Below are positions 2,095-62,221 of a DNA stretch of 64,000 nt, one piece after another; positions within the stretch are counted from its first letter, which is position 1; the number at the start of each line of letters is the position of its first letter. The notes under the pieces are model-generated. The model ran no database searches. It saw only the letters and a program-made list of their open reading frames with translations, and was not told where the DNA came from. Origin of the DNA: Leucoraja erinacea (taxonomy: Eukaryota); assembly GCF_028641065.1 (NCBI RefSeq), contig NC_073380.1, positions 23,312,001 through 23,376,000 on the forward strand. The letters are read 5' to 3'. Made by a program: the position numbers and the translations under genes.

Positions 2095-2400
2095 AACATA
2101 GGGACACAGGAGATGCTGGAACGTTTAACACAATAAAAAAATATACAAGAGCCGGAAGAAATGAATGGGTCAGGCAGCATCTATGGATGGAAATGGAAAA
2201 ATTATCTTTCGTGTCAGGACTCTTCTTCAGACTAATTGAAGAGGGGAGAAAGCAGGTGAAGAAAAATGGGAACAGGGCAAAAAGGGTGGGGTTTTTTTCA
2301 CACAAAGGGTGGCAGGGGTGAATGGAAGGGGAAGAGGAAAGGAACAGTGACAGGGTCGTGGGAGAAATGGTGCACACTTTGACAGCCAGCTAAGCCATGC
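2095..2400 (-). mobile_element. Degenerate Penelope-like pLTR/3' end
   Basis: Reverse complement resembles the pLTR repeated through the window (CTGAAGAAGAG...GAAA core, CAGCATCT motifs). Confidence 0.6.
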
Positions 2401-5230: not shown

Positions 5231-7572
5231 CAATTCAATTCAATTCAATTTCAATTCAACTTTAATGTCATTGTACAAATACGAGTATGGGTACAACGAA
5301 ATGCAGTTTAGCGTCAGTCCGTAGTATAGTGCAATATAGAAATAAAAATAAAAATACAGAATAATCAAACAATAATCGAACAATGTGGACGGAGAGACTG
5401 GAGAAGTCTATTGGCGGGACTCCGAGTTCAGCAATGTGATGGTATTATTGTAGAAGCTGTTCCTCATCCTACTGGTACGAGACCTGAGGCTCCTGTACTG
5501 CCTCCCTGATGGGAGGAGGGCAAACAGTCCATGGTTGGGGTGGGAGGGGTCTTTAATGATCTTCCCGGCCCGTCTCAGACACCGTTTTCGGTGGAGGGCA
5601 TCCATGGCAGGGAGCGGGGCACCGATGATGTACTGCGCGGTTTTCACCACCCGTGCATTGTAGTGCATTCCTGTCCGCTACGGTGCAACTGCTGTACCAT
5701 ACCATGAAGCAGGTGGTCAGGATGCTTTCGATGGTACAGCAGTAAAAGTTGGTCAGGTTCTGGGGGGACAGGTGAGCTTTCTTGAGCCTCCTCAGGAAGT
5801 AAAGGCGCTGCTGCGCCTTTTTGATCAGCTTGGAGGTGTTGAGGGAGCAGGACAGATCCTCCGAGATGTGTACCCCAAGGAATTTGTAGTTGGAGACGCG
5901 CTCCACCTCAGTCCCGTTTATATGGATGGGGGTATGTCTGCCCCCTCTGATCTTCCTGAAGTCAAGAATAATTTCCTTCATCTTCTTGGAGTTGAGGACA
6001 AGGTTATTGTTGGCACACCAGGTTGTCAGGTGCTGGACCTCCTCCCTGTAGGCTGACTCGTCGTTGTCACTGATCAGTCCTACCACAGTGGTGTCGTCGG
6101 CAAACTTAATGATGGCGTTGGAGCCATTCTTAGGGATGCAGTCATGGGTGAAGAGGGAGTAGAGGAGAGGGCTGAGCACACAGCCCTGAGGCACGCCGGT
6201 GTTCAGTGTTATAGTGGAGGAGGTGAGGTTGTTGACCCTAACAGACTGCGGTCTGTTGGTGAGGAAATCCAGTGTCCAGTTGCAGAGGGAGGTGGAGATG
6301 CCAAGTCCGCTGAGTTTGGTGATCAAGCTGGCGGGGATGACAGTGTTAAAGGCGGAGCTGAAATCAATGAACAGCATCCTGATGTAGGTGTTATTGATGT
6401 CCAGGTGGGTCAGGGCAGAGTGTAGGGCCGCCGATATGGCGTCCTCTGTAGACCTGTTGGTCCGGTAGGCAAACTGATGGGGGTCCAGTGTGGGGGGGGG
6501 GGAGGCTTGCTTTGAGGTGAGCCAAGATCAGCCGCTCAAAGAACTTAGCAATGACAGGGGTGAGTGCCACTGGGCGGAAATCGTTGAGACTCCCTGTGGC
6601 TGATTGTTTGGGTACTGGCACGATGGTTGATGTCTTGAGGCAAGTGGGGACAACATCCTGGGCTAGTGACAGATTGAAAATGTCAGTGAGGACTAGGGAT
6701 AGTTGTCCAGCACATGTCCTAAGCATCCAGCCAGGGATGCCATCGGGGCCGGCAGCTTTGTGCTCATTCACCTTGCTCAGTGCATCTTGTACAGCAGAGG
6801 TGGAGAGACTGAGGGGTTGTTCATTTGGGGGTGGAGCAACTTTGGTGGCTGGAGTTTTGTTGTCATGCTCAAAGCGAGCATAGAAATCGTCTGGAAGGGA
6901 GGGTTTGTGGGGGGGGGTGTTAACTTTCTGGTAATCAGCAATGGATTTGATTCCTTGCCACATGCGTCTGGGGTCGGAGTTGTTTTGGAAATGCTCCTCA
7001 ATCCACCGTTTGTGATTGAGTTTGGCATTCCTAATTCCCATTTTCAGATTGGCCCTGGATGAGCTGTATCCCTCAGCATTGCCAGATCTGAAAGCAGCAT
7101 TGCGAGCCTTCAGCAGGAGTCTGACCTCCCTGCTCATCCACGGCTTCTGGTTAGGGAAGGTCTTTATCTCTTTGTGGGTAGTGACGTTGTCAGTGCAGAA
7201 TTTTATATAGTCCAAGACTGTTGAGGTGTATGAGTTGATGTCCACTTGGGAGTTAAAGGTGGACTGGGTAACAAACAGACTCCAGTCTGTTTGCTGAAAC
7301 TGCTCCTGTAAAACAGAGACAGCTCCCTCAGGCCAAACCTTCACTGTCCTCACGGTAGGTTTCACACGTCTGATCAGAGGTGTGTATTTGGGGAGCAGGA
7401 ACAAAGAGAGGTGATCAGACTGACCAAGGTGGGGGAGGGGGAGGGCTTTGTAGGCTTCAGTAATGTTAGTGTATACTAAGTCCAGAATATTGTTTCCTCT
7501 GGTTGGGCAGGAAACATGCTGATGGAACCTGGGGAGTACAGTTTTAAGGTTGGAGTGGTTGAAATCACCAGC
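5231..7572 (-). mobile_element. Rex1/Babar-clade LINE, 5'-truncated, young
   Basis: APE C-terminus HLGQSDH, AAGPDGIPG, DFRPVALT, RT motifs [29 protein letters not shown]-terminal [14 protein letters not shown]; (TTGAA)n tail at 5231-5260. Confidence 0.92.
5408..7572 (-). pseudogene. Rex1 endonuclease-reverse transcriptase ORF, frameshifted (ORF pieces 6391-7599, 5553-6377, 5408-5668)
   Basis: Three consecutive ORF-track pieces form one APE-RT protein; one frameshift lies at the G-run near 6491-6502. Confidence 0.88.
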
Positions 7573-8859
7573 TCCCCAGTCCTGGTTCAAATTTACCAAA
7601 CAATTTCCTTGCTTCGAGAGAGTTTTATGATTTCAGCATTACAAAATCAAAACAAGCTTTGGGCACTCTCAACAATATTCCACTGTTGAGATTAAGATCA
7701 TAAGTGGAATATTGGAATATTAAGTCAATTGATTATTTCATCCAGCTATCCATTCAGTTTTCACCTAGCAAGTAGAGTTGCAAAGGTACTATAATTTGAT
7801 GATAGAACTATCATGTTGAAGAAATGTATTGTTTTTTTCCTTAGGAAATGACACGTTGTACTGGTGGCCTGGACAGGGGAATAATTAAATTGTCTTAATC
7901 TGGAAAGAACATGAAGATGAGAAAGCGCAAAACCTTTCTTTTGCAGCAATGTTTTCCTTCCGCATTAAATGCATCATAAACTGTCAGTATAAATATATAA
8001 CCTGACTCAATTTAAAAGAGATTCTCCTTATACTTTAATTCTTTTGAACAGTTTTCAATTGTCACATTTTTTTTACAAAGGAGATGCAAATAAGAAGCAA
8101 CAGAATTCAGATATGTTAAAAATGCCGATAGCAAGATAATGCGTAAGACAGTTAAATCTGTTTTAAGTGTCAGAGAAATGTTCAGTAGATGGAGCTACAC
8201 ACCAAGGTAAAGTTTATAGAATGTAATTTTCACCACAAAGACAAATCATCAACCTGGTCATAATGACCAGTGTTCACAGTTCAGTAAGAGTTAATCTTTT
8301 ATTTGAGTATTAAATCTAAAAGGAAAGTATGTACCAGAGTTAGCATGAACAGTTTTGAAATGTCAGGACCAAACACACTATTAATATTATTCCTGCTAAT
8401 ATTATTAAATTTTATGTAAATCAAAAGGAATGGTTCAATAGTTCAACGGTTCTTCATTGTCACATATGCACAGCACAATGGAATCCATTTGCACAGCCAT
8501 AAAATGCACAGTTGCCACAATTTTAGAACCGTTTAAAAAAAAGGGAAAAAAACAGCAAAAAACAGCAAACAGTCCAAAGTGCAAAGTCCAGTCCATGTGT
8601 TGGCAGTCTTGCAGCACCCCCGATCCAGGTAAGCCTAGCTAAGCCCGACCCAACATGCCTCTCCTCTGCCGACTGTTTGTGTTCCACCTCTGTGTTACTA
8701 AAATATTAAATATTTTTGAAATTCAACTGCAATTGGCTGTTGTTTGACCCAGTGGAGTTTAAAGCAAATTGTTTGACTTGTCACACTTGCAAACTTGCAA
8801 TGATTGAAAGCAGTACAATTGCAGGACACCCAGAGTGAAATTCCAGAGTCTGATAGTTA

Positions 8860-10080
8860 CAGGTATAGAATGGTCTAACACAGAAATGAATCCTTCAGCC
8901 CACCACGACAGTGCAGATCATTTTATTACCCACATTAATCTAATTTGTTCATAATAAATCAGTATCCTTCTATGCCGTCTATTAAAAAGTATGTCTAAAT
9001 GCCTCTTAAACATGGTGATTGTACTTCACCTCTTCACTTCACTTCAAGAAAAACAACCACAGCTTTTCCCAATTCTCAGAATTAAAGTCTTCCAATTCAT
9101 GAAATATCCTTGTTAATTTCCTCTGCACCTGTTCCAGTGCAGCCATGACTTTCTTATAGTCTAGCGAACAAAAGAGCAGAACATTTATATTCTAACTTCC
9201 GGGCCTCTGAAGGCAATAGTATCTTCTTCAACATCCTATCTACCGGTGTGACCACTTTCTGGAAACTATGGCTTGAACTGTAATGTCCCACTGTTCATCA
9301 CCATTTCTTAGTACCCTAGCATTTATTGCAAAATGTCCTGCTGCTATCTGACATGACAAAAGGCATCATCCCACATTAGATAGACATAAAAAGCTGGAGT
9401 TTCTCAGCGGGTCAGACAGCATCTCTGGAGATCTTTTGGGTCGAGAGCCTTCTTCATCTCACATTGTTTGGTTTAAATTTAATCTGCCAATGCTCTGCTC
9501 AACTTTCTATCTTATCAACATCCTGTTGCAGCCTTAGGCATCCTTCCTCATTATCCACAATGCCTCTAAATTCCATATCATCCACAAATTTAATTATCGT
9601 ACATCCTATATTCACACCCAAGACATTAATATAGATCACAAACATAAACGCTTGGGTAGCTTACACCCCAGCAGTATGACCATTGACTTCCCTAACTTCA
9701 AGTAGCCCCTGCTTTCCCTCTTTCTCCATCCCCTCCCCCTTTCCAGTTCTCCGACCAGCCTTACTGTCTCTGACTAAGTTTTATCTCTGTACTGCCCACT
9801 TCCCTGCCATCAGTCTGAAGAAGGGTCTCAACCCGAAATGTCACCTATTCTTTCTCTTCAGAGATGTGGCCTGTCCCGTTGAGTTACTCCAGCATTTTGT
9901 CTCTCCCAAAGATTCCAGACCTGATTCCTATGATACACATCTGACATAGGCTTCCAATCAGAAAAGCATCCTTCCACCATTATCTTCAGTCTCTCATCAA
10001 GTTAATTGTGTATCCAATTAGCTAGCTTGTCTTGGATCCCATGTGCCTTAACACTAAGTCTACCTAAATACTCGGTGGCC
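8860..10080 (-). mobile_element. Old degenerate CR1 with nested Penelope pieces
   Basis: CR1 RT-like nucleotide motifs on the minus strand (ATCATCCACAAAT, CTTGGATCCCATG), interrupted at ~9380-9458 and ~9648-9905. Confidence 0.65.
9648..9905 (+). mobile_element. Penelope-like 3' end with pLTR
   Basis: GIY-YIG C-terminal coding remnant (RLGSLHPSSMTIDF), then the pLTR with CTGAAGAAGGGTCTCAACCCGAAATGTC at 9815-9842. Confidence 0.85.
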
Positions 10081-10639
10081 AATGTTACAGTATAACCTAA
10101 CAAAGTGAGTGCACTTCTGTTCCTAAATTCATCCCAGATGGCTTAATTACATGATTGCTCTGGGATAGCTTTTCTAAATGCTGTTGTGATATTCTCCCTA
10201 CTCAGTAGTGCAATTGCCCCATATCTTTGGCAAATCCCCCTCCCCCCATAATATCTAAAATTCCGAATCCCCGGAACATTAAGATGTCAATCCCGCACAT
10301 CCTTTGACCATATTTCTAGCAATTACAATCATATCATAATTCATTGTACAGATCCATGCTCTAAATTCATCTGACTTATCTGTGAATCTCTTTGCATTGA
10401 AGTAAATGCAGATGAATCTGCCAGCCCTCCCATGTTCTCTAACTTGCTCTACAGGTTGGACTGCCTCACCCGCTGCCTCGCCCGCTGAGTTTCTCCAGCT
10501 TTTTTGTCTACCTACAGATTGGACTTGCTTGATTTATCCTCTACATTTGAGTCAAGTTACGTTGTTAATCTAGTCTCCACTGTTTCATTTAAACCTGGAC
10601 ACAAACACTCAATCACATCTAGAAGGAAAGCAAAAGGAA

Positions 10640-11500: not shown

Positions 11501-12162
11501 TTAAATTGGATCACCTCGAAAAACAGGTGTGGGGATGGCTGTGTGAAATTAACCCAAGCCATGCTGGCAGTAAACCAATTTCATGCCGCATACTCATTGA
11601 AATTAGTTCTGCATCCAGCTAGTGATACTGTTCAGTGGCTTCAGCCAGGAATCAATATCATGAGTGTATAACTTAAATTAAAGCAAATCTGCACCCATCA
11701 CCACTTTTAAAGAGGAGATTGGAGCGGGGGCAAGCAGGTATTTTTGAGTGAATTTAACTTGAGAAATGGTGAAGAATAGCACAACCTGGAAAGAAAACCA
11801 AGGTACTTGGACACTGTGCTGAATGTCTGAATTGACAAAGTGGAAAGAATCCAGTGGCTACATATTGTTGTCATATCAGAGGGCAAGGAAACAGTCAAGC
11901 TCTCCTGCAAAGGGCACTAATAAGGAACAGAGGTGCTTAGATGAAGTTATAGGTAAAGAAACATGGTGCATTGTGGGTGGATCATAAGAAGCTTCCTGTG
12001 CTAGGAAAGAAAGGCAAAAGTGAAAAGATATTTGAAATTGCACCAGCTCCTTGCAAAGCATATATTTGCACATTCCCATATCCATGCCTATACACGTCAC
12101 CTTGGAAGTATGGAATGCACTGGAGATCAGCTAGTATCACATCTGACTTCCTACCTTAATAT

Positions 12163-12349
12163 TTAAGAAAGAACTGCAGATGCTGGAAAAATCGAAGGAG
12201 GCCAAAAATGCTGGAGAAACACAGCGGGTGAGGTAGCATCTATCGAGCGAAGGAATAGGTGATGTTTCGGGTCCAGACCATTCTTCAGTCTAGTCCTTCA
12301 TTCCATAGATGATGCCTCACCCGCTGAGCTTCTCCAGCATCTTTGTCTA
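12163..12349 (-). mobile_element. Short palindromic Penelope-pLTR insertion with 13-bp TSD
   Basis: TSD CCTACCTTAATAT at 12150-12162 and 12350-12362; inverted pLTR arms; hammerhead-like core on the minus strand at ~12258-12291. Confidence 0.85.
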
Positions 12350-12424
12350 CCTACCTTAATATCACGATTTAGCCCAGCACAATTAACTGATGTACTGAAC
12401 TGATAAGCTTATACTCTTTGACTT

Positions 12425-16810: not shown

Positions 16811-18096
16811 TTAAAACTCCAGGATGTCCTTTTATTCCATTACTGTAAAAGATATTTGACCTGAAATAGTGTCATGGAGAGTTACTGCACAGATGTATCT
16901 CTTCTTCAGCCCTCCCAGTACATATTAACCATCATGCACCCTCTTGGATAAAGGGTAAAACGTTTAGTGCAGGATAATGTCTAATTAAAGATAGTTGAAA
17001 GGTCTCCAAATAGGTAGATGGGATGTCAGGACCATACTCGAGCTGGCAAGAGGATGGTTTAGTTGCCTGATAACCAATGGGCAAAAATTGTCTCTGAACT
17101 TGGAGGTATGCGTTTTCAAACTACTCTACCACTTGCCTGAGAGGGGAGAAGGGGAGAAGAGGAGAGAGGGGAGAAGAAGGAGTGACCATGATAAGAATGC
17201 CAATGACTGAGTGTGGGGTGTTTAAATGGGAATTAACTGAATTGTATTTATACTCTTATTGATGAACTGAACACACCTGGGCTATTTTTCAGGTTTGTAC
17301 AGTAGTTGGCACTGGTGTAACTGTACTTGAGCAACTTGCCAATTAACTCTGGAATGCAAGTATTCGAGGGTGCAACCAGGATAATTGCTGTGGAACGAGA
17401 AGTGACTTGCCTTCTTAACCATTGTCATCCTTCAGCTAAAGTTACTTCCTTAATATTATGGAGTACCCGAGGCCAAAGCTTCTAGGATTTTGATTCAGCA
17501 ATGATAAAGGAAATCCAATGTATTTCCTAATTATGATATTGTACAATGTTGGAGTGATGTTCCCATGTGCCTCTGGAGTTTTCCTTTTCAGGGGTTAAGA
17601 TTGTGGACTTGGGAGGTTCTACCAGTATGTCCTGGCAAACAATTATAATCCATTGTGTAGATGTAGTACATTACAGCCACTATGAATCAGCGATGAAGGA
17701 AAACACATTGATGGTGATAAATGACAAACCATTTGGCATACTAACATATGGGCTGCTTTATCTTGAACTGGACTTTAGTGTGCACTCAACTCATGAGTAA
17801 ATGGCACTTGAAAGTTTTTATAATAACACCTTCCATCACTATATTAATGGTTGAAAATATTATTTTTTGAGTTGTTATTAAGAGGGTTAGATTTGTCTAG
17901 CTCTTTGCGAGTGGGAGCATACCTGGCCAATTTTCCACAATGTCAGATAGACCCCAATGTCGTAACCGTACCAGATCAATTTGATTCTGTGTTCAGTTTG
18001 TTCTATGACACAAGCCTTCAGAATGACGGTCAGGGTGTTGTCTGGTCCAATTTCCTTTGCTCAGTCTGGAGAGACAGAGAGCATAAAATCAATGCT

Positions 18097-18296
18097 TAAG
18101 AAGGAACTGCAGATGCTGGAGAATCGAAGGTACACAAAAAAGCTGGAGAAACTCAGCAGGTGCAGCAGCATCTATGGAGCGAAGGAAATAGGCAACGTTT
18201 CGGGTCTGAAGAAGGGTTTCGGCCCGAAACGTTGCCTATTTCCTTCGCTCCATAGATGCTGCTGCACCCGCTGAGTTTCTCCAGCTTTTTTGTGTA
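18097..18296. mobile_element. Short palindromic Penelope-pLTR insertion with 15-bp TSD
   Basis: TSD CATAAAATCAATGCT at 18082-18096 and 18297-18311; near-perfect inverted arms ~18131-18204 and ~18223-18296; central CTGAAGA...GAAACGTT core. Confidence 0.9.
18202..18237 (+). ncRNA. Minimal hammerhead-ribozyme-like motif (Penelope pLTR)
   Basis: CUGAAGA core, helix II GGGU-UUCG-GCCC, GAAA, palindromic AACGUU helix III and a GUU cleavage-type triplet. Activity is not demonstrated. Confidence 0.65.
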
Positions 18297-20444
18297 CATA
18301 AAATCAATGCTGTCAGGGCATCCTTGCTGATGGTCATTGAAGCCTCACATTAATAATTTATTCCCTGCCCGTGTTACTTTCAGTGATTCTTTCAAGAGTT
18401 GCTCAACACAGCGGAGCTGGTTTATCAGTTGATGGAGAACGATAGGAGTATTTATTTTCCATGTCCGACCTGGTTTCAGGTAAAAGATTGGAAAATGTAT
18501 ATCATGGGAATCAATCCCCATGGTATATTAAAAAAAAATGTGATTGAAGGATTGCCTATTACAAATATTACAATCAATATAGCTGTAAACAACAACATCT
18601 GATGTAGAAAGAAAGCCTTAAAAAAACAATTTGTACTAAAATAACTGAGGAGAGGTTAAGAGCTTTAATTAACGTATGTGGTTATGGAATTTAGAATTTA
18701 AAATAGAGCTACAATTATGTTATGTTTCTTTCCTTAAATCAAAACAGGAGTTTTGCAGCTTTTTTGCAATTTGGTTATTTTTTTTGTCAACCACTTGAGG
18801 TCCCTCCATGCCTAGAAGATATCTTAGCTGAGTGGGCGGCAATACTGTGGCAACGCATACTAAAAACGCCCACTTAAATGTTAGAGTTGGACACTGATGA
18901 CGCATCTCACAGTTTTCTTTCTTTCAGTGCCCACATATAACACCTCTTTCTGAATTCCATGCACTGCCACTAAGCAAGCAACATCTTTTCTGAATAATTA
19001 TAAAATTTATACATATGTTGCAGCATTTTCCTGTATTTCAAACATTGACATTTCTTCATCAGTTTTTATTGTCCAAATGTCATTGTTAATAGCAGATTTT
19101 TTTTAAAATAGTTTGTTCATGAGATATGAGCATTATTAGCTATATCAGAAATTTATTTGAGGCCCTGGCAGCATGAATTAATACTCCAGTGGCAGTTACA
19201 TATCTAAGTGGCAGAGATGTGTTTGAATTGGAACTGCGGACAAAATGGCTGTCCAAACTACACAGTTTCTGCAAATAAAGAAACATGACACAGAGTTCAA
19301 GGAAGCAGTTCGTCACCACTTGCAAGATGAGCAATATCTTATACAATCTTTTGGAATGAGCAATGAATTTTCAAACTTCAAGTACAGTCCATTCTCATTG
19401 TTTCCCATGCTCCTTTCTCATTCTTTTTCTTTAAAATGCCTTGCTAACAGCCAGTACTCATGCTCCTTATCATCTGATCTGTCAATTATGAAATTTTCTC
19501 TTGCACCCCACTACTCCCCACAACTCTGCATTAAAAACTGACTTCCCTCAACATGTTTCCTCATTTCCGTGGAAGGGTCCCTGTCCTGAAACATTAACTG
19601 ATATCATTCCACAGAAGCTGCTTGACTGGCTGAGATTTTTCACCATTTCTGTTTTTAATGTCGGATGCAGCATCTTAATTTTGATGTATAGAAGAAACTG
19701 CAGATGCTAGTTTACACCAAAGATAGTCACAAAAGGCTGCAGTAACTCAGTGGGTCTGGCAGCAGTTTAATCTGCTTTCCCCGTTCAAGAAGAAAGCTTA
19801 ATTCTTAACTTTTCCACTCGTGCAAAATAAATGCTTGCTTTGGCAAGCTGACCCATGTCTCCAAGAATGAACAAATAGATAAAGTACAGCTATGCTGATG
19901 TAGTCCTGGCTGACCTGCAACCTTCATTATTGTTCTCTCATTTTGCATTGCTCATTGGGTCAGTGATACCTCCCAAAGGAAGACAGGGTTGCCTCCTTGA
20001 TTCAGCTACACGATGATCCTGTCATTACAGATACAGTATGACACGACCACTGCACACAATAAAAACCATTAGGAATCACAGGGATATTAAGGTGGAACTC
20101 TTCGTAACTTTGTTTACAACTGATATACCAAGGACTTTGGTTAAGCACGAAACGTAACATGACCCCCATAAAAGCTGTTGTTTATAAATAATATATCTTT
20201 ATTTTAGGTTTACTTGATTGTTGGAATTAAATACATATATCGCTATGATGGGATCAAGACGTGTCTCTGAACCAGTTGCCCCGGCTAATGAATATTAACT
20301 TGATTATAATACAATTGAGCCTTTTATCAGGAATGTTTTCCTGCTATTTTGCCTCCTTCCAAATACTCTTTCTCACTCCTTGTTTGTTCCATTTTCCTTA
20401 TAACATTGACTGCTTGTCACTACAATGAGGTTTTTGAGCTGGTA

Positions 20445-20853
20445 GACAAAAGCACATCAATAATCAAAACTTCAAGTAACTCTTGTGCTGCCTCTCTCTC
20501 TCTCTCTGTCCTCCCCCAACCTAGTTGTTGTACTAGTTCCACTGTTGTCCTGCTGAGTTTGTATTGCTCGTTATCACCTTTCCCACTGCCAACTATGGAC
20601 CATTGTGGGCTGCACCTTTCCTTGATCATCATTGCAGGCTTTTATTTATTCTTTTCATACATTTCAATCATTTGTTCTTTGTACCTTTTCAATTCTCTCA
20701 GTTCCCTCTCCCCTGTCTTTCAGTTTGAAGAAGGGTCTCGACCTGAAACGTAATCTATTCCTTTTCTCCAGAGATGCTGCAAGACCCACTGAGTTACTGC
20801 AGCCTTTTGTGACTATCTTTGGTGTAAACTAGCATCTGCAGTTTCTTCTATAC
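20445..20853 (+). mobile_element. Penelope-like 3' UTR and pLTR
   Basis: pLTR with TTGAAGAAGGGTCTCGACCTGAAACGTA (20725-20752) and the GCATCTGCAGTT end motif. Confidence 0.8.
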
Positions 20854-21049
20854 TTCAAAATTGAGCTGTTGTGTTGCAGAAAATAACACTAACATAAAAG
20901 GTCCAGTGGTTAACTAGCAGCCTAGGAAATATAGATTTGATGTGCTCTTTAAATAGCAATCCTTCAAATCTCCATTTGAGTTTAATGTGTCTGAAAAAAT
21001 TATCATACAGCAAGGCTGACCAATTTTAAAGATTTAAAGATTTTGTCAG

Positions 21050-24000
21050 GTTGATGTCCAGGACATCTACAAAGAAGTTCAATATAATCAAACCAATCGA
21101 CAAGGGAGTGGCCATTGTAGTCTGGTGTGCAGAGGCCAGGCGACAACTCTCAGACACATCCTCCTACTTATCATTGGACCATGATCCCACAGAGAAGCAC
21201 CAGGCCTTAATCTCACACACCATTTCTCATCACTTTTGGCTGTCTTGCACAGCCTCTAAGCCTATCGTTTCCCAGCCCCGCACATCCCGGTTTTACCTTC
21301 TCCCCAAAATCCATAAACACAACTGCCTTGGCAGACTCATTGTTTCTGCCTGCTCCTGATTTCCACATGGTACAAAAAAATGCTGGAGAAACTCAGCGGG
21401 TGCAGCAGCATCTATGGAGCGAAGGAAATAGGCAACGTTTCGGGCCGAAACCCTTCTTCAGACTGATGGGGGTGGCGGGGAGAAGAAAGGGAGGAGGAGG
21501 AGCCCGAGGGCTGAGGGATGGGAGGAGACAGCCCGATGGCTGAGGAAGGCGAGGAGACAGCAAGGGCTAACAAATTTGGGAGAATTCAATGTTCATGCCC
21601 GCAGAATGCAGACTCCCCAAGCGGAATATCAGGTGCTGTTTCTCCAATTTCCGGTGTTGGTCACTGGCCATGGAGGAGACCCAGGACAGAGAGGTCGGAT
21701 GGGGAATTGGAGGGGGAGTTGAAGTGCTGAGCCACCGGGAGGTCAGGTTGGACCGAGCGGAGGTGTTCGGCGAAACGATCGCCCAGCCTCCGCTTCGTCT
21801 CACTGATGTAGATCAGCTGACATCTAGAGCAGCGGATGCAATAGATGAGGTTGGAGGAGATGCAGGTGAACCTCTGTCGCACCTGGAACGACTGCTTGGG
21901 TCCTTGAATGGAGTCGAGGGGAGAGGTAAAGGGACAGGTGTAGCATCTCTTGCTGTTACAACGGAAAGTGCAAGTACAACGGTGGTACGTTAGGGAAGGG
22001 AAGAATTGACAAGGGAGTTACGGAGGGAACGGTCTTTGCGGAAGGCAGACATGGGGGGAGATGGGAAGATGTGGCGAGTGGTGGGGTCACGTTGTAGGTG
22101 GCGAAACTGACGGAGGATTACTTGTTATATGTGATGGCTGGTGGGGTGAAAGGTGAGGACTAGGGGGACTCTGCCCTTGTTGCGAGTGGGGGGGATGGGG
22201 AGAGAGAGCAGTGTTGTGGGGTATGGAAGAGACCCTGGTGCGAGCCTCATCTATAGTGGAGGAGGGGAACCCCCGTTCCCTGAAGAATGAGGACATTTCA
22301 GATGCCCTGGTATGGAACGTCTCATCCTGGGAGCAGATGCGGCGTAGACGGAGGAATTGGGAGTGGGGGATGGAGTCCTTACAGGAAGCTGGGTGGGACG
22401 AAGTGTAGTCCTGATAGCCATGGGAGTCAGTAGGTTTATAATGGATGTCGGTCAGAAGTCTATCACCTGTGATGGAGATAGTGACGTCAAGGAATGGTAG
22501 GGATGTGTCGGAAATAGTCCGGGTGTATTTCAGTGAATGATTTCCACATACCTTGACGCCATCTTATCCCCCCTGGTCCAATCTCTCCCGGCCTATGTCC
22601 AAGATACCTCACATGCCCTTTGTCTCTTTAATGACTTCTGCTTTCCGAGCCCCCACTCCCTCATCTTTACTATGGACGTTCTGTTACTCTACTCCTCCAA
22701 CCCCAACAGGAAGGCCTTAAAGCACTCCATTTCTTCCTCGATCGCAGAACCATCCAATTTCCCTCTATTAACACTATACTCCACCCAGTGGAGCTGGTCC
22801 TCACCCTTAATAACGTCCCCTTCGCTCCTCCCACTTCCTCCAAGTCCAAGTGCTCTATGAGCACCCGCATGGGCCCCAACTGTGCCTGCCTCTTTGTAGG
22901 GTAATTTGAACAATTCCTGTTCTGAGCGTACATTGTCCCTATCCCCGAACGCCATCTCTATTATATTGACGATTGCATCGGTGCTACCTCCTGCACCCAA
23001 ACAGAACTCATGGACTTCATCAACTTCTCCACCAATTTCCATCTTGCACTCAAATTTACTGGGACCATCTCCGACACCTACCTCCCTTTTCTCGATCTCA
23101 CAGTCTCCATCACAGGAAATAGATTATCGACTGATGTCTATTACAGAACCACTCAACTACACTTCTTCCCACCCTGCAAAGACTCCATCCGCTACTCCTA
23201 ATTCCTCCGTCTATGCCACATCTGCGCCCCAGTTGAGGTGTTCCATATCAGGACTTCCGAGATGTCTTCATGCTTTAGGGAACAGGGTTTCCCTCTCCAA
23301 ACATAGATGAGGCCCTCACTCATATCTTCTCAGTACCTCACAGCTCCGTCCTTGCGCCCCCTCCCCTTAATAGCAAAGGAGACAGAGCCCCCCTAGTCCT
23401 TACCTTCCATCCCATCAGCCGTCACTTACAACACATAATCCTCCAAAATTTCTCCCACCTCCAACGAGATCCCACCACTTGCCACATTTTCCTATCTCCA
23501 CCCCTTTCTGTGTCCGCAAAGACAGTTCACTCTGCAACTCCCTGGTTAACTCATCCTTTCCCACTCAAGTTCAAGTTCACATTTATTGTCACATGCACCA
23601 ATTAAGGCACAGTGATATTTGAGTTACTATACAAGTAAAAATAACACAATACACAATAGAGTTTAACATAAACATCCATCACAGTGGAATCAACATTCCT
23701 CACTGTGATGGAAGGTGATAAACTTCAGTCAATCTTCCTCCAATTGTTCACCCGTGGTCGAGGCCTTGAACCCTCCGCAGTCGACCACCCCCTCCCCTGC
23801 AACCGCAGAAGAAGCAACACCTATCCCCATATCTCCTCCCTCAACTCTGTCCAGGGAACCCAACAGTTATTTTAGGTTACACAGTTGTTCATTTGCACTG
23901 CCTCCAACCTCATCTACTGTATCCATTGTTCAAGATGTGGACTCTTATATATCGGCGAGACCATACGTAGACTGGCTGATCGTTTCGCTGAACACTTTTG

Positions 24001-25204: not shown

Positions 25205-25992
25205 GAAGAGGTGCACGTGAACCTTGGTCTCTAGGCAGAGTCTATTGCATTTGGTGCTCCCGATATAGCCTCTTTATATCAACGGTACCAAGCGTTGAAG
25301 AGACGACTGCTTCAACAAACATTTGCAATCTGTCTGTCAAGGTCTGCAGGAACTCCAGGCTGTTGAATCTTTTAATTTCCTTTCCCTTTCCTATTCCCGT
25401 TCCACATACCAATTTTCCTTCCTTAACCAGCCATTGCCAGAATGAGGCCACACACAATCTGGAAGAACAGCACCTCATATTCTCCTTGGATATCTTTCAA
25501 CCCAACAGTATGAACATTGAATTCTCCAATTTCAAGTAATGTCCCCCTAACCACCCCCCTCCCTTCACCCTGCCTTCACCCGCATCCCAGTACGCAGTCA
25601 TTTTCCCACCATCTCCCACTACCCAAATCACCCCGCTCCTTTCCCCTCCTCCGAATGCTCATCTCCAATCTCCGAGTCCCATATTTCTCTTTTACTCCCC
25701 TCTTTCCCCTGTCCCCAGTCCCCTTCTTCCCATATTCCTCCTTCCGGCTGTAGATCTCAATCCTCCTCTTCTATCCTTATCTGACACCCCTTTGTCTGCT
25801 TTTCACTTATTTGCCACTTACTCCACCCATTTGCCAATCACCCCACCTCACCTATATCCACCAATCACCTGGCAGGTTTTGCCACACTACCACCTCTCTT
25901 TTTCAAAACTTCCCCCCACTACTTCATCAGTCATAAGAAGAGGGTCAATGTAAAATGTTTTCTGTCCATTTCCCATGACACATGCAGCCTAA
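25205..25992 (+). mobile_element. Degenerate Penelope 3' end, split by a MITE (resumes ~26905-26940)
   Basis: LEEQHLIFSL..QPNSMNIEFSNFK stop, a pyrimidine-rich UTR and a decayed pLTR. Confidence 0.75.
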
Positions 25993-31377: not shown

Positions 31378-32816
31378 TAACCATATAACCATATAACCAT
31401 ATAACAATTACAGCACGGAAACAGGCCATCTCGAACCTTCTAGTCCGTGCTGAACACATAATCTCCTCTAGTCCCATATACCTGCGCTCAGACCATAACC
31501 CTCCATTCCCTTCCCATCCATATAACTATCCAATTTATTTTTTTAATGATAAAAATGAACCTGCCTCCACCACCTTCACTGGAAGCTCATTCCACACAGC
31601 TACCACTCTCTGAGTAAAGACGTTCCCCCTCATGTTACCCCTAAACTTCAGTCCCTTAATTCTCATGTCGTGTCCCCTTGTTTGAATCTTCCCTACTCTC
31701 AGTGGGAAAAGCTTTTCCACGTCAACTCTGTCTATCCCTCTCATCATTTTAAAAAACCTCTATCAAGTCCCCCCTTAACCTTCTGCGATCCAAAGAATAA
31801 AGCCCTAACTTGTTCAACCTTTCTCTGTAACTTAGTTGCTGAAACCCAGGCAACATTCTAGTAAATCTCCTCTGTACTCTCTCTATTTTGTTGACATCCT
31901 TCCTATAATTAGGCGACCAAAATTGTACACCATACTCCAGAATTGGCCTCATCAATGCCTTGTACAATTTTAACATTACATCCCAACTTCTATACTCAAT
32001 GCTCTGATGTATAAAGGCCAGCACACCAAAAGCTTTCTTTACCACCCTATCTACATGAGATTCCACTTTCAGGGAACTGTGCACAGTTATTCCCAGATCC
32101 CTCTGTTCACCTACATTCTTCAATTCCCTACCATTTACCATGTACGTCCTATTTTGATTTGTCCTGCCAAGATGTAGCACCTCACACTTATCAGCATTAA
32201 ACTCCATCTGCCATCTTTCAGCCCACTCTTCCAACTGGCATAAATCTCTCTGTAGACTTTGAAACTCTACTTCATTACCCGCAACCCCACCTATCTTAGT
32301 ATCATCTGCATACTTACTAATCCAATTTACCACACCATCATCCAGATCATTGATGTACATGACAAACAACAGTGGACCCAACACAGATCCCTGTGGCACC
32401 CCACTCGTCACTGGCCTCCAACCTGACAAACAACCATCCACCATTACTCTCTGGCATCTCCCATTCAGCCACTGTTGAATCCATCTTGCTACTCCACCAT
32501 TAATACCCAACCATTGAACCTTCTTAACCAACCTTCCATGAGGAACCTTGTCAAAGGCCTTACTGAAGTCCATATACACAACATCCACTGCGTTACCCTC
32601 ATCAATTTCCCGTGTAACATCTTCAAAAAACTCAAGAAGATTAGTTAAACAAGACCTTCCAGGCACAAATCCATGTTGACTGTTCCTAATCAGACCCTGT
32701 TTATCCAGATGCTTATATATATTATCTCTAAGTATTCTTTCCATTAATTTGCCCACCACTGACGTCAAACTAACAGGTCTATAATTGCTAGGTTTACTCT
32801 TAGACCCCTTTTTAAA
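31378..32816 (-). mobile_element. Young 5'-truncated CR1 LINE
   Basis: (ATGGTTAT)n tail at 31378-31405 and an uninterrupted RT region. Confidence 0.93.
31749..32816 (-). CDS. CR1 ORF2 reverse transcriptase domain (5'-truncated, frameshift near 31750)
   Basis: NYRPVSLTS, QHGFVPGRSC, YMDFSKAFD, GVPQGSVLGP, KYADD, LEYGVQFWSP. Confidence 0.85.
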   Translation of the reverse strand, partial: FKKGSKSKPSNYRPVSLTSVVGKLMERILRDNIYKHLDKQGLIRNSQHGFVPGRSCLTNLLEFFEDVTREIDEGNAVDVVYMDFSKAFDKVPHGRLVKKVQWLGINGGVARWIQQWLNGRCQRVMVDGCLSGWRPVTSGVPQGSVLGPLLFVMYINDLDDGVVNWISKYADDTKIGGVAGNEVEFQSLQRDLCQLEEWAERWQMEFNADKCEVLHLGRTNQNRTYMVNGRELKNVGEQRDLGITVHSSLKVESHVDRVVKKAFGVLAFIHQSIEYRSWDVMLKLYKALMRPILEYGVQFWSPNYRKDVNKIERVQRRFTRMLPGFQQLSYRERLNKLGLYSLDRRRLRGDLIEVF

Positions 32817-34529
32817 CTTAAAATTAATATATGGCAGTAAACTTCTTGAATACTCGCACGGCTGAACGCGGCCTTTCCACTTTGGACCTTGCACAGTTAG
32901 CGGCACTTCCGCAATCGGCGTGACCGTGACTGCACTCACCAATAATTACGCAATCAGCGCCACCTCTGCACTCACCAGAAATTCCACAATCAGCGCAACC
33001 TGTCCACGAAGCGGAAGTCACGAAATGAGCGGGACATTTGAACTAAACACAGTCGGACCTCACAGGCAGGTCAGCAGGCCAAACAAGTCATGGCATTGTC
33101 ATTAAGGGCTAACAAATCATGTATTGTACATTGCAGACTCACAGTTCAGTTGATTCACAGCTTAGAATGAGAGTTGTGGCCTCTCAATCGAGATCTTGCA
33201 GAGTGACTGAGTCATGTCTAGGCATCCAGGGTTTTATAGTCCTGCCCCACCTCCCGGAAGGGACGTTACCTTCATCATGGTATTGCCATGCCAGAGGATC
33301 TCAAGTTTTTTTAAACACACATAACTTTTTTATTTTTAATCGATGGGAAAAATCCTCAGAGCCTGCTCAGCGGAGGAGGACTGTGAGTAAGATGGCCAAA
33401 ACTCATAGTGCTATATGGTAGCATTTTTTCTAAAATCAATATCAGATAGGAAGTGGTCAAGATGACACTTTTAATTATATAGATAGTGTGAGCTAGGGTA
33501 CAAAATTGGCTTGATGATAGGAGTCAGAGGATCATAGTGAAGAGTTGTCAGATGAGAGATCAGTGATCCCCCACCACCATCAGTGCTGGGTCCACTAGGG
33601 GGGGGTAGGTGAGCAGGTGAACTGCAGCTGCAAACAACCCCACTCTCCTGCTCACCTAACCCACCCATCCCCCTCCCCCCCCCCCCCCCCCACCTTTCAT
33701 GCCCAACTCCAGTCCCGTCCCGACCCCCTGGGAAACTGAAGGGAGCGACTGCCCCGGTGCGACTGTCACTGACCTGCTGGCATCGTCGACGTGAAGACAG
33801 TGCAAAGCCCCCACGCCGGTGCAATGGGCGGGGAGCTGGAGAGGGGAGGGAAGGGGTCACACACATGGTCGAGAAGCAGAGGGGTGTAGGTGGGGGTGGT
33901 GACAGACAGGGCCAACAATGAGTGGAGAAAGACAGAAACACCAACGTGCAAAGGAGACCTACAACAGTGCATGATCTCTCTCGCGTAATGGCAGGTGATT
34001 GTCGCCTGCCCGCTGTTTTTGATGCTAAAGCCTTGGGATCGTTGCCCTTCATGTTGGCGTGGAGGGGGAGGGGGGTATTGTGCTGTTTGTTCGCCCCCTA
34101 CTATCCCAGGGACAGGGAGACACAGCGGCTTTTGAGACTGGTGGGCTATCACTTCCAAAGTTCTGCCCACACAGTCAGTACACCTCTCCTACACTTGTCT
34201 CCCGCACTAAGATCACACCGCAGAGAATGATCCCAGCCTAACCCAAGAGCCATGTCACCCCAGACAGATTAATGACGCCCCCCCCCCCCCCTCCAACCTC
34301 TCTCCACCTCAACTCACGCCTGGGCACCGAAGCAACTCAGGAGGCGAACCCTGAGCTCCGTCTCACAACAATCTGGTGTGCACATCCGTCCACATGCAAA
34401 GATTTAATCTCCCGTCTCCCCGCAGTGTGTAGACATGGCAGTGAATTCAATTAAAACATATCAAACCTGTGTGTTTCAAACAAATCATAAGTATAACTGC
34501 TCTGGCACTGGATGATGCGCATTTTCCCT

Positions 34530-35490: not shown

Positions 35491-35949
35491 TAAGATAACC
35501 TGATGAACTACAGCATCATATGTATGAGGGATTGTTCCATTAAAACTGTTTATTGTGAGAATATTTAGGCTGTAGTTTTATTAGCACAGTACCTATACGA
35601 TAGATTGCAATTATACCAATGGAAACAATATGTATAAAGAAATGACTGGACCAGAACATATTTATGAATTCCAATTGTTCTTTTATACTAGTCTTAAGAA
35701 AGTTGTTTGCAAGACTATTTACAATCCAATATATGATTGTTGGGATAACAGGGGACCAGTATTGTTTCTTAATAAATAAGTCGTTTCTTACAAATCAAAT
35801 TGCACTTTTTGAGGGATTTACAAAGTTGGTACATGAAGTGTATCCGTGAATGTGAATACAGTTGAATCCGTGAATGTGAATGCAACGTGAATGGAAATAA
35901 CGCAAAGGTAATGGACAATAATGGAGCCGTATTGTAAAGGCTCAGCATT

Positions 35950-36627
35950 GATGCAATAGATGAGGTTGGAGGAGGTGCAGGTGAACCTCTGTCGTACCTG
36001 GAACGACTGCTTGGGTCCTTGAATGGAGTCGAGGGGGGAGGTAAAGCGACAAGTGTAGCATCTCTTGTGGTTGGAAGATATCGACAGAGGTTCACCTGCA
36101 CCTCCTCCAAACTCATCTATTGCATCTGCTGCTCTAGATGTCAGCTGATCTATATCGGTGAGACAAAGCGTAGGCTTGGTGATCGTTTCGCCGAACACCT
36201 CCGCTCGGTCCATATTAACCAACCTGACCACCTGGTGGCTCAGCACTTCAACTCCCCCTCCCATTCCGTATCCGACCTCTCTGTCCTGGGCCTCCTCCAC
36301 TGCCAGAGTGAGCAACACCGGAAATTGGAGGAACAGCACCTCATATTCCGCTTGGGGAGTCTGCATCCTGCTGGCATGAACATTGAATTCTCACAATTCT
36401 GTTAGCCCTTGCTGTCTCCTCCCTTTCCGACCTCCCTCAGCCCTTGGGCTCCTTCTCCTCCTTATTCCTTTCTTCACCCCACCTCCCCCCACCCCCCATC
36501 AGTCTGAAGGAGGGTTTTGGCCCAAAACGTTGCATATTTCCTTTGCTCCATATATGCTGCTGCACCCGCTGAGTTTCTCCAGCATTTTTGTGTACCTTCG
36601 ATTTTCCAGCATCTGCAGTTCCTTCTA
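35950..36627 (+). mobile_element. Penelope-like 3' fragment with inverted 5' segment
   Basis: GIY-YIG ORF 36082-36405 (QRFTCTSSKLIYCICCSRCQLIYIGET...FSQFC); 35950-36066 is antisense Penelope sequence; pLTR at ~36498-36627. Confidence 0.9.
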
Positions 36628-36639
36628 AAATGCTGGTTT

Positions 36640-39600
36640 AACCCTCGCTGCCCCATCTACATTCTTGGAAACTCCAGAAGAGCCTGCTGTACCATGGATA
36701 CGCTGGTATGAAAGATTCAAGACTTACCTGATTGCAAATGGCCTGGACGGCGCGGCCATTTCGGACATTCGATGCCGAGCGATTCTGCTGCATTGCCTCG
36801 GAACGGAGGGACAGCGAATCTTCGCGCAGCTCGACAGTGCTGCATCGAGTGAGTACAGTACTGCTATTAATGCACTGGGCAAATATTTTGGCCCAGAGAC
36901 AAGTGTGCTGGTAGAAAGATATCGGTTTTGTCAATGGTCACAGGGACATGGCGAACCAGTGAAGCAATTTGCTTCTGCATTGATAGAACTGGCTGCAAAG
37001 TGCAATTTTGGAGCACTGACTGATGAGCTGGTGAGAGACCAGCTGATCGAAAAGACTTCTGTCCCATGGATTAGAGAGCACCTTCTCAAAGAGGATGATG
37101 CACTCACACTCGAAAAGGCACAAGCGTTAGCTGTGCAAATTGAAAGTGCGATACATAATGCCGAGGTGCTCAAACAGCAACCGATGGCAGGCTCCGAGGG
37201 AGCGTTTAGTCATACATCTCATCAGATGAACACAGCACCAGTGCGGGCATTCAGAGGCAATCAAAACACAATCGCTCAAACAAGCAGTATCCGAATTGTG
37301 GCCGGCCACATGCTCCCGGGGAATGCCTAGCCAATGGTAAATGATGCAACACGTGTTCAAAGCTGAATCACTACGAGAAAGTATGCCGGTCATCAAGGAG
37401 AAGGCGTCATCTGTCCGCCATGTAGACAATGAATCTCCGGGTGGACACAACGTATATACTATAAAGGACAGGGCTGACCAGGATGTTCGGTCAACAGCGA
37501 CTTTCAAAGACTGCATGGTCGAGATCGCTGGGACCTCAGTATCGCTTCTCATATGGTTGGGAGTGAAGGTTTCTATTTTGAGCATCGACCTCTACAAAAG
37601 GTATTTTTACGGAATACCCACTTGCTCCCCCGAGGGACACTGTTCACGCTTATGATGGTTCAACCATACCCACGAGAGGGCTAGTGACCGTTCCTGTCTG
37701 CTACAAAGGAGTTAAGCTCGATAGCTTCACATTCTACATCGCAGAAGGATAGAATCTGATGGGAGTCAATTTGTTTGATTAACTAGGGTTCAAGCTTCAG
37801 GACTCAATTGGCATGAACATAGCGACGCGGACTATGGGCATGAGTACCCCTCCCTTTTCTTGGGTTTTGGGATAGTTAAAGGGTACTGCCACACACCTCG
37901 TGTAGGCACATCAGTCCGATCTGTTTCACAACGCTTACGGCGTCTACCATTTTCAGTTCGTGTGGAAGTCTCAATGGAACTGAAACAACTCGAAAAGGAT
38001 GGTATCATTGAATGCATCGATTCATCCCCTTGGATATCGAATTTGGTCATCACGCGACGCAAGAACGGTGAACTCAGGCTGTGCATCGTTCTCAAATCAG
38101 TCAACAAAGCCATCATTACAGCCAAATACCCTCTGCCAAATATACAAGAGCTAGCTGCGTCGTTCCACGGTTCAACGGTGTTCACAAAACTGGACATGCG
38201 CCAAAGCTACCTTCAGGTACCCCTAGCAGAACGCAGTCGGCAGTTGTCAGCATTCATCACATATAAAGGAGTATTTCAATACCGTAGGGTGGCGTATGGA
38301 CTGTGCTCAGCGCCCAGCGCATTTCAAAAAATCGTGGCGTCGGTTCTGGCAGACATGGATGAAACACTCAATCTCCTCGATGATGTTGTGGTCCATGGCA
38401 GGGACAAGGACGAACACGATCGACGACTGCATGCTGTGTTAGCTCCGCTCGTGCAACAAAACTTGACGCACAAAACCGGAAAAATGCATATTTACAGCAT
38501 CCGAGATTGACTTTATCGAGTACAAAGTGACAGTGACTGGAGTTGAACCCACTCAGGACAATGTCCAAGACATCAATGCACTCCCCGCCCCAACTAACGT
38601 AAAAGAGCTAGCATCATTTCTGGGCATCACCAACTTCTACCACACGTTTGTGCCACGGTACGCGCAGATCGCATAACCGCTACAGAAGCCGCTACGGAAA
38701 GACAAACAGTGGGGATGGACGGATGAGCAGGACTTCACGTTCAACTCGCTGAAAGACAAAATAGCATCTCCGCCTGTTCTCGCACACTTCGACCCAAATG
38801 CGGAAACGTACGTCACAACAGACGCTTCCGGTATAGCGATCGGAACAGTGTTCTTGCAGGGTATCGATGGAAGCGAACGACCGATCGCATTCGCATCCCA
38901 TCCCTTGACTGCATTCGAATGCAAGTACTCCACCGGAGAAGGCAAAGCATTAAAGTGCATATACGCTTGTGACCACTGGCACGTATACCTATACGGGAGA
39001 CCGTTCACTCTCCGTACAGATCACCAAGTGCTAACTACGTTGCTGGACACGTCAGGCTCAGGACATCGTCTGCTCAGGATCTACAAATTGTCCGATCGCC
39101 ATCATCAGTACAACTTCACAGTAGAATACCTCGCAGGTTCACGCAATCGCATCACAGACGTGCTCAATCGCGCCCTAACGGTGGCACCCGCAAGCACACA
39201 CGATAGCGATGCTTCAAGCGCCATCGACAAATACATTCTCGCGGTAATTCCGCGCACAATGGCGAATCTAGTGACGCGGGGACAGCTGAAAGCAGAGTCG
39301 ACAGCTGACGGCACACTGCAAATTGTCTGCCAGTATCTCAGGACAGACTTGCCCAAGGAGATAGCAGATGACTTGGTTCCGTACCACCGGGTACGCCACA
39401 TACCGGCAGTGTTTGATGATACATGTGTCATGCGCGGAACTCAAGTGGTTACACCCAAATCACTGCAACACCGCATGTTACAACTGGCACACGAAGGACA
39501 CCCGGGCATTGTTAAGATGAAACAACGGTGTCGCAAGGCAGTGTGGCGATCAGCAATAGATCGTCGCTTAGAAGATTTCGTAAAAAATTGTGAAGTATGC

Positions 39601-40200
39601 GCAATTAGTGAGAAAGCAACAAAACCACGTCCTGGCCCTCTTCAGCCAATCCCATGGCCGGACAAACCATAGAGGCATCTCGACATCTTCGGAGAGGTGC
39701 AAGCTGCACAAGGAAGCCAGCAGTTTCTACTTGTAGTACATGATCTCCACAGCAAGTGGCCTGAGATCGCAACTACTTTCTCAGTCACACCAAGCTCGAT
39801 CATCGCGATTCTCTAAAAGCTGTTCACTAAGTGGGGACTGCTGGAGGTCATAATGACTGCCAACGGCCCTCAGTTCATATCTGAACAGTTCTCCACTTTC
39901 CTCGCGAGTTATGACATTCAACATCAGCGGACGTTGCGACACCACCCCCAATCAAACGGCGGGGTTGAACGATTCAATCGTGTGATCAAGGAAAGCATAA
40001 AAGCGAGCATGTCGGAGGGGAAAATGTTCGAACAGTCATTCCATATCCTCCTCCGATCCTACAGATCCATACCACACACGTTGACTGGGAAAACATCAGC
40101 AGAGTTGATGATAGGGCGAAACCTGCAAACAAAACTGAATGCTCTTCAACCATCATCCCACCCAAACCCAGAAACAAAAGCAGGGTGGAAATGATAGCGC
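36640..40200 (+). pseudogene. Gypsy gag-pol with stops and frameshifts
   Basis: ORF pieces 36665-37330, 37341-37655, 37860-38510, 38848-39672 and 39853-40194. Confidence 0.88.
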
Positions 40201-52729: not shown

Positions 52730-53473
52730 TGGGCCTGTTCCACTTACGTGACTTTTTAGGCGACTGCAGGACTCTATGCGGTCACCACATGGTCGCCACA
52801 TGTTCGCGGGTGGTTGCCGGGCAATCGCATTCATGGTTGTGAGAAGTTCCCGCATTCTGGGAACTTGTCGCGGCCTCATTATGGTCACCGCAAATTTTTC
52901 AACATGTTGAAAAATTAACGGCGACCAGAATAAAGCCGCCATGGAGAGTAGCGAGAATTCTTGTGCCGTAGTTGGGTCGCCAGGAGGTCCTTGTGGGTTG
53001 CCAGGAGGTCGAAGGTTCTCGCAGGTTCTCGTAGGTTGTAGCCGGTGCTGACCGGTGAATTTCATTGGCTCATTGGGAAAAAAAAACCCAATGAGCCAAT
53101 GAAATTGCTTACTGCTTACATTGGGGGGAAAAAACCCAATGTAAGCAGTAGTTTTCAGAACCAAGGATAACAGACTGGTAATGTTAAATGTCCGCTGAGC
53201 TTCACAGCCGTGTATCTCTGGCTTCTTAAAAGTAGTCTCCATTCCTTTTCCCTCCTTCTTCCCCCTTCTGCCTCTTGTCCCCCCCCCCCTCTTTTAAAGT
53301 ACTTACTATACACTAGCCGTCTTAATTACAGCACCAACCTTCTTGTTCATCACAAGCTGATACAACCTTCTTGTCTGTATCACCTTGGCTTTGCACTATG
53401 TGAATTTCACTCAGACAGTGCTCCTCCTGCTTGCCCTATACCCTACCCGCATAACGGGCTGGTGAAGAAAGCG

Positions 53474-54571: not shown

Positions 54572-54659
54572 ACAGATTGGAAGCATATGGAATCCTGAGG
54601 TTCCTAAAGTAAAGCCAATCACTTTAGGAACCCCAGGATGCCATATGCTTCCAATCTGT
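54572..54659. repeat. 88-nt inverted repeat (39-bp arms, 10-nt loop) within a degenerate CR1
   Basis: 54572-54610 pairs with 54621-54659 with 2 mismatches. Confidence 0.95.
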
Positions 54660-62023: not shown

Positions 62024-62221
62024 ATAGCCTGTCCCACTGTATGAGGTAATTCAAGTGTTTTCCTGAGTTCTCCCCTGACTCGAGCTCGTGTAATGTACGT
62101 AGCAGGTACATAGGGGCTCGTACGAGTAAAAGGTAAAATAATTTTTCATCACGAGTATTTTTTTATTCGTGGATATTTTTCAATGTTGAAAAAACGTCAC
62201 GAGTTTACCGGATTTACCGGA
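62024..62221. mobile_element. Harbinger-type MITE left part, interrupted by the HERO element
   Basis: TTA|ATAGCCTGTCCCACT and the shared motif TTTTTATTCGTGGATATTTTTCA (compare 42775-42797). Confidence 0.7.

Follow-up and report, generated by a model that had tools for sequence, protein, structure and literature searches.

Endonuclease-bearing (EN+) Penelope-like elements (PLEs) often insert with inverted pLTRs. In the available text on Adineta Pen2a, an adjacent inverted pLTR is accompanied by a 31-bp tail on one side only and a 9-bp TSD (PMC3846280). Figure 2 of Craig et al. 2021 draws the combination of inverted pLTR, one-sided tail, and TSD as typical, with the gene in between; the portion of that paper covered here also describes a CX2-5CxxC linker between RT and EN as a Neptune feature that is shared with Nematis (PMC8557442). 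Biochemical insight comes from the Anolis Penelope protein, which in vitro nicks and extends both DNA strands, prefers AT-rich DNA, and initiates RT from two internal positions, one on either side of the tail; its hammerhead is protein-assisted, and hammerhead mutants leave in vitro insertion unchanged (PMC11167929, part of the text). For metazoan PLEs, the covered sections of Cervera and De la Pena report pairs of minimal hammerheads that lie on opposite strands with 100-700 bp between them, weak cleavage that occurs only as dimers, and, in D. virilis, an intron end that maps to helix I (PMC4209133). Animal non-LTR retrozymes, as far as the accessible text describes them, are head-to-tail tandem repeats with one hammerhead per unit, mostly free to fold, that are processed to circular RNA (PMC7229834; bioRxiv 10.64898/2026.07.22.740005).

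The window analyzed here (the whole stretch of DNA, 64 kb) harbors a 200-bp insert at 18097-18296. With a probability of about 0.8, the insert consists of two head-to-head pLTR copies of an abundant EN-bearing PLE, flanked by a TSD, that likely arose in one insertion event from the RNA of an autonomous parent and is likely dead. Its parts are as follows.

18082..18096, plus strand: left TSD copy, 15 bp, 11 of 15 A/T, found only once at the empty site of organisms C and D
18097..18129, minus strand: Penelope "tail", 33 nt, on one arm only, unpaired in the fold, aligning to the parent tail at 36596-36628
18130..18204, minus strand: inverted, 5′-truncated pLTR, terminating within the 3′ strand of helix II; the CUGAAGA core is absent
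18202..18237, plus strand: minimal type I hammerhead motif with a putative cleavage site after 18233; the stem is predicted to bury it
18203..18205, no strand: head-to-head junction with a 1-nt microhomology (G 18204) in comparison with the parent start
18204..18297, plus strand: tailless forward pLTR running from the usual 5′ boundary as far as the internal 3′ end, its last base common to the TSD
18297..18311, plus strand: right TSD copy, a direct repeat of the left one

The two TSD copies (18082-18096 and 18297-18311) are identical at 15 of 15 nt with a spacing of 215 nt, confirming the perfect 15-bp TSD of the initial annotation. Contigs assembled from four public runs (organisms A-D) were aligned to 17000-19500. 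One contig of organism D joins 18081 directly to 18297, while one contig of organism C skips 18097-18312, one base beyond expectation, and leaves a single repeat copy. For organisms A and B, contigs extend from each flank into the insert. These alignments prove an insertion with TSD. Because the flanks diverge by ~1% in organism B and by 2-3% in organisms C and D, the insertion is young, yet it predates the split of A and B or is shared between the two. The summed contig depth, which is not a copy number, reaches ~1e7 over the insert versus 21 in the flanks, and the pLTR family is therefore very abundant. The earlier proposal of a real retrotransposition with TSD, dependent on the enzymes of a parent, is supported, and the insert is without any of the parent's coding region. 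The accompanying claim that the insert has no ORF holds for the parent's coding region but not for mechanical stop-to-stop frames, which do cross the insert.

The insert reads as an inverted unit of tail and pLTR cut at helix II, followed by a forward pLTR without tail, with one arm extending to the tail end and its partner terminating at the internal site. The forward arm is identical at 92 of 94 positions to the repeat at 21370-21463 and at 87 of 94 to that at 36502-36595. The first of these belongs to an RT/GIY-YIG-bearing copy 3 kb away, upholding the Penelope pLTR origin that had been assigned. The inverted arm matches the forward arm at 74 of 75 positions and the parent at 21.4 kb at 72 of 75. 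The arms that pair, 18130-18204 and 18223-18297, are 75 nt each, lie 18 nt apart, and are mismatched only at 18158 (a CpG-type transition), in agreement with the estimate of ~74-bp arms and about one mismatch. The description as a palindromic insert of ~200 bp is accurate in length and in its arms; however, the palindrome is not complete, with 18097-18129 forming an unpaired tail. The plus strand has an MFE of −157.6 kcal/mol (z −20.2), and none of 200 shuffles folds as well. Two copies co-fold at −314.1 kcal/mol, versus −307.4 kcal/mol for two monomers; no conclusion is drawn from this difference. A transcript of the locus is predicted to form 75 bp of dsRNA, and the suggested source of long dsRNA thus stands as a predicted duplex, provided that the locus is transcribed.

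Two copies of the parent family in the window retain coding sequence.

21371..22563, minus strand: broken, 5′-truncated copy with the C-terminal part of RT, a C-x4-C-xx-C linker, the GIY-YIG endonuclease, the 3′ UTR, and the pLTR to the internal site
36082..36628, plus strand: second copy with a GIY-YIG frame, the 3′ UTR, and the pLTR with tail

The GIY-YIG frame of the 36-kb copy matches PF01541 (E 8.6e-05, 23.2 bits versus a cut-off of 22.6), and a protein search returns 75 relatives of the parent endonuclease, none with an informative name. The C-terminal RT fragment at 21-22 kb has no Pfam match and has Atlas neighbors with PF26215, its RT label coming from its position; the RT-EN order of the family is taken from translation. 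The RT core is absent from the parent-family copies examined, as is a full-length parent from the 64-kb window. Judged by these sequences, the parent is an EN+ PLE. The C-x4-C-xx-C motif, found at 21960 (minus strand) and 41735 (plus strand), would make it Neptune-type by motif, CX2-5CxxC being a Nematis feature as well. Of note, the 36-kb copy (35943-36628) has a 5′ inversion within its endonuclease region (35950-36067 antisense), a second kind of inversion junction; no TSD is found for this copy.

A pLTR profile built from eight window copies yields 27 matches in the window, 20 of them at E <0.001, compared with two matches at E >3 on the reversed window. The 3′ ends of 13 aligned window copies fall into two discrete classes, with six at the internal site, six at the tail end, and one ambiguous. 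Among the eight other copies searched for a TSD, three are convincing: the copy at 12 kb (exact) and those at 9.4 and 10.5 kb (one mismatch each). The copies at 0.1, 36, 41, 52, and 59 kb show none or chance-level repeats. The 9.4- and 10.5-kb copies (9366-9465 and 10449-10525) are non-hairpin solo fragments of ~76 and ~49 bp with TSDs of 12 and 14 bp; long TSDs are a family trait.

A separate cluster at 19571-20871 comprises an old plus-strand pLTR (19571-19675), a tail-bearing inverted arm (19690-19766), and a tail-bearing forward pLTR (20721-20849). Over 97 nt, ~20 of which lie past the tail end, the latter two are 94.8% alike; tails on both arms are unusual.

A further feature of the family lies upstream of the hammerhead. 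In six copies that keep the parent upstream sequence, a pyrimidine tract (0.72-0.88 over 25 nt) and a YAG precede it in the manner of a splice acceptor.

Pyrimidine tract and YAG sites: 21464-21500 (minus strand), 36464-36503, 9775-9814, 20685-20724, 2231-2270 (minus strand), and 25892-25931

The pyrimidine content is reached by 1-7% of the 25-mers in the window, and we take the same bases to fit an initiator consensus as well. Either a splice acceptor or an initiator could set the 5′ hot spot of the pLTR. An RNA start is favored over splicing because loose contig ends often keep a few upstream bases. As the source of the 18-kb junction, splicing was rejected, the missing piece being 17 nt.

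The preferred explanation of the insert, a single event templated by parent RNA, can be formulated as follows. The GIY-YIG endonuclease of the parent would nick both strands 15 nt apart, and each nick would prime reverse transcription of parent RNA. One start would be at the tail end and the second 33 nt further in. One of the cDNAs would reach the 5′ boundary of the pLTR, which is probably the 5′ end of the RNA. The 3′ ends of the two cDNAs may then be joined directly via the 1-nt microhomology after a stall in helix II; alternatively, a perfect palindrome may form first and lose 17 nt from its centre later. The two routes fit equally well, with about even odds between them. Long perfect palindromes tend to lose their centres. 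Both young hairpins (12 and 18 kb) combine an internal-end arm with a tail-end arm, and the two discrete 3′ sites of the window copies match the two RT start sites of Anolis Penelope, which supports priming on both strands. Against the preferred explanation stand the same or a near-same junction at other loci, a junction microhomology of 1 nt, and a window without a full-length parent. In addition, the priming model is carried over from a Poseidon-clade element, whereas the parent here would be Neptune-type by motif.

The window contains four head-to-head pairs (0.1, 12, 18, and 59 kb) with four different centres. At 0.1 kb, the minus arm is weak (E 0.5) and matches at 27 of 30 positions in direct alignment. 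The 12-kb pair offers the fullest comparison.

12150..12362, no strand: second head-to-head stub, of an older subfamily, with the same outer ends, a 13-bp TSD, and a different centre

The 18-kb junction corresponds to a perfect palindrome centre from which 17 nt are missing; in the 12-kb copy, ~30 nt are missing from the other side of such a centre. The 12-kb arms are alike at 47 of 59 positions. At five columns, a small number of diagnostic positions, both 18-kb arms agree with each other and differ from both 12-kb arms. At four of the five, the 18-kb state is that of both gene-bearing parent copies, suggesting that the hairpin arms follow the autonomous lineage.

The contig alignments contain 738 joints. 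Among the 15 listed, 14 lead from the left arm across to the right one, and six land on 18204/18205 from six different left ends. Loose ends before 18204 occur in 482-564 contigs per run, a count that is partly forced by the reference differing from the parent at this point. In three runs, 107-143 contigs show a perfect fold-back centre (loose ends before 18206), and the start of the parent is nearly self-complementary. The forward arm thus begins at a hot spot, 18204/18205. Among the 32 pieces listed (with ~294,000 others), two span the 18-kb junction with at least 31 nt on both sides. They carry 7-8 substitutions and 1-2 gaps, and one has a depth of 42 versus ~8 for the flanks. Four more of the 32 span the junction with a short side of 23-28 nt and come from organisms C and D, which are without the 18-kb insertion. 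The recurring junctions may differ by 1-2 nt, as gap positions are not given in the alignment. The possibility raised in the initial annotation that every copy has its own inversion junction does not hold strictly, given junction-spanning contigs from diverged loci, but the junctions are very diverse, including four centres in the four window hairpins. Recurrence of a junction is expected even without a master copy because the right start is fixed, the left ends are limited, and the family is very abundant. An older pLTR variant would give a 3-nt microhomology at the 18-kb junction, compared with only 1 nt in the 18-kb subfamily.

The centre of the insert had been interpreted as a hammerhead. 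The minimal core is indeed found, comprising CUGAAGA (18206-18212), helix II (18214-18225), and GAAA-C-GUU (18226-18233), although one unpaired A before helix II had been left out. On paper, GGGU (18202-18205) can pair with GCCU (18234-18237) to form a helix I of 4 bp. This exceeds, as had been proposed, the 2 bp of four of the five linear copies that keep the parent upstream sequence and a readable core. However, the helix is predicted not to form, and one of 4 bp is also found at an unrelated junction at 30.7 kb. The two extra G's of helix I lie in the arm that pairs with helix II, and the 3′ half of the core sits together with helix II inside the 75-bp stem. In constrained folding, forcing the hammerhead fold on the whole insert costs +31.9 kcal/mol. 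The predicted pair probability of helix I is ~1e-23 in the whole insert and <1e-3 in a 41-nt fragment, for which the hairpin is still predicted to be favored by 4.1 kcal/mol. Transcription yields the blocking arm first, and in prefix folds this arm is predicted to pair once its partner emerges. The plus strand has a single core, the minus strand has none, and the insert is a single head-to-head unit without a head-to-tail repeat. Rfam yields no match at gathering scores across the 64-kb window. Below threshold there are 18 matches around the element, none of which is to a hammerhead, and the best is to the miRNA hairpin model mir-559 (66.3 bits versus 95). The hammerhead motif is predicted to be a passenger that cannot fold in the hairpin transcript.

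In the same region (18204-18246), other copies show several well-supported joints that go back by 32-34 nt, e.g., 18245 to 18212 and 18236/18237 to 18204, suggesting short tandem duplications of the hammerhead region. Copies with joints that return to 18204 would be head-to-tail minimal hammerheads and, as such, better retrozyme candidates than the 18-kb hairpin.

Recurrence of the junction could also reflect descent. In a non-autonomous subfamily of this kind, one or a few master copies with the 18-kb junction would be transcribed, the Penelope protein would recognize the 33-nt single-stranded tail, and whole hairpins would be copied in a SINE-like fashion, the ribozyme having no role. Consistent with this scheme, each of the four runs has junction-spanning contigs from other loci (two of the 32 pieces listed pass the 31-nt rule and four fall short of it), and a minus-strand transcript is predicted to keep a free 3′ tail. 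Trans mobilization by pLTRs alone is reported in the covered text on Adineta (PMC3846280), and non-autonomous Chlamys elements exist (PMC8557442, in part). However, the other junction-spanning pieces are ~7-11% different, whereas the 18-kb copy shares 98% identity with the gene-bearing lineage. Since the junctions vary widely and the forward start is fixed, chance repeats are expected among very many copies, and the 3-nt microhomology of the older variant would be available at the same junction. The RT would also need to unwind the 75-bp stem. It is thus unlikely, on balance, that the stubs are themselves templates and form a Penelope-dependent, SINE-like family across several related fish species, with an RNA of a 75-bp duplex and a free tail that could supply dsRNA for small-RNA silencing of the parent. 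If same-junction copies did derive from a master copy, they would constitute a duplex-RNA SINE of a Penelope element.

The retrozyme-like element with an improved ribozyme that the initial annotation put forward is very improbable. By that proposal, the junction improves helix I, and the RNA self-cleaves as a dimer, circularizes, and reinserts. The core residues are intact, a 4-bp helix I can be drawn, and minimal Penelope hammerheads do cleave weakly as dimers (PMC4209133) or, in Anolis, with protein assistance (PMC11167929), according to the covered parts of both sources. Against these points stand the predicted helix I probabilities and cost of the fold, a blocking arm that is made first and is paired in the predicted prefix folds, the single core with none on the minus strand, the lack of a head-to-tail repeat in the insert, and a helix I of equal length at 30.7 kb; in the Anolis text covered, hammerhead mutants did not alter insertion in vitro (PMC11167929). 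The short, fold-back, TSD-flanked form of the insert and the sub-threshold Rfam matches to miRNA hairpin models would suit a MITE, another DNA-transposon derivative, or a microRNA precursor. However, none of these matches reaches its gathering score, and the stem accounts for them; with a one-sided tail, the inverted repeat is not terminal; and TSDs of 12-15 bp also flank the non-hairpin copies at 9.4 and 10.5 kb. The empty site is clean in organism D and differs by one base in organism C. Both arms are Penelope pLTR, and their homology to RT/EN-bearing copies effectively refutes the DNA-transposon reading, leaving this group of explanations with next to no probability. The insert is most likely an ordinary dead stub rather than a new self-cutting parasite.

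The single 18-kb locus matters little, while the stubs as a class provide a read-out of Penelope insertion mechanics. The class is useful in that it is very abundant, has a clean empty site, pairs a tail-end arm with an internal-end arm, and has a fixed 5′ boundary. Crocodilian "Chompy" repeats may, we presume, be similar stubs. Genome-wide, stubs could test in vivo how Penelope primes both strands and makes inverted pLTRs, a step described as unvalidated in the covered text of PMC11167929.

Three fold-backs in the window (48075-48368, 52870-52939, and 54572-54659) lie outside the pLTR profile matches. The first, whose 79-nt inverted arms are 97% identical and separated by ~136 nt, resembles a MITE or DIRS-type element. 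Broken frames of other retroelements occur at 5553-7632, 31749-32945, 36629-40194, and 62190-63593, with translations judged by eye. We take these to be L2/Rex-like and CR1-like LINE RTs, a Gypsy-like gag-pol that immediately follows the 36-kb Penelope tail, and an R2/NeSL-like RT. A literature search returned no paper on hairpins of this Penelope family in cartilaginous fish; subscription literature, Repbase, Dfam, and supplements were largely outside its scope, so this is no sign of novelty. Pattern scans of metagenome, prokaryotic genome, and viral contigs gave 0 matches, an uninformative result given that such collections are unlikely to contain DNA of this host.

Comparison with the known systems places the insert among Penelope insertions. 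With animal non-LTR retrozymes, as the covered text presents them (PMC7229834; bioRxiv 10.64898/2026.07.22.740005), it shares a non-coding, pLTR-related sequence, a type I hammerhead, and longer TSDs. Unlike those elements, it is one head-to-head unit with a core that is predicted to be blocked; head-to-tail tandem units are absent, and a freely folding hammerhead is not predicted (+31.9 kcal/mol). The minimal hammerheads of metazoan PLEs, in the portion of PMC4209133 considered, have the same CUGANGA, an unpaired base before helix II, a palindromic minimal helix III, and a short helix I; in contrast, one arm alone keeps the whole core here and is paired with its own complement. PAc, a Poseidon element of Anolis, has the same two 3′ termini separated by the tail and an AT-rich target, and both-strand priming as in PAc would explain the 18-kb layout. 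The parent differs from PAc in its C-x4-C-xx-C linker, and gene-less hairpins are not described for PAc in the text covered (PMC11167929).

The closest match is to EN+ Penelope-like insertions, exemplified in the covered portions by Adineta Pen2a_Av/Pen2 (PMC3846280) and Craig et al. 2021 (PMC8557442). These have the same head-to-head inverted pLTR, TSD, and pLTR hammerhead motif, and, like the 18-kb insert, a 30-40-nt tail at one end only. The insert differs from them in being without an ORF and a second direct pLTR, hence its 200-bp unit, and in a TSD of 15 bp as opposed to 8-10 bp in the Adineta examples (PMC3846280). Homology to a family with RT plus a GIY-YIG at the C terminus, an inverted 5′-truncated copy, a one-sided tail, and a TSD with an empty site are all found at this locus. 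The insert is the published layout of inverted pLTR, one-sided tail, and TSD with the gene missing: a young, gene-less insertion of a known kind.
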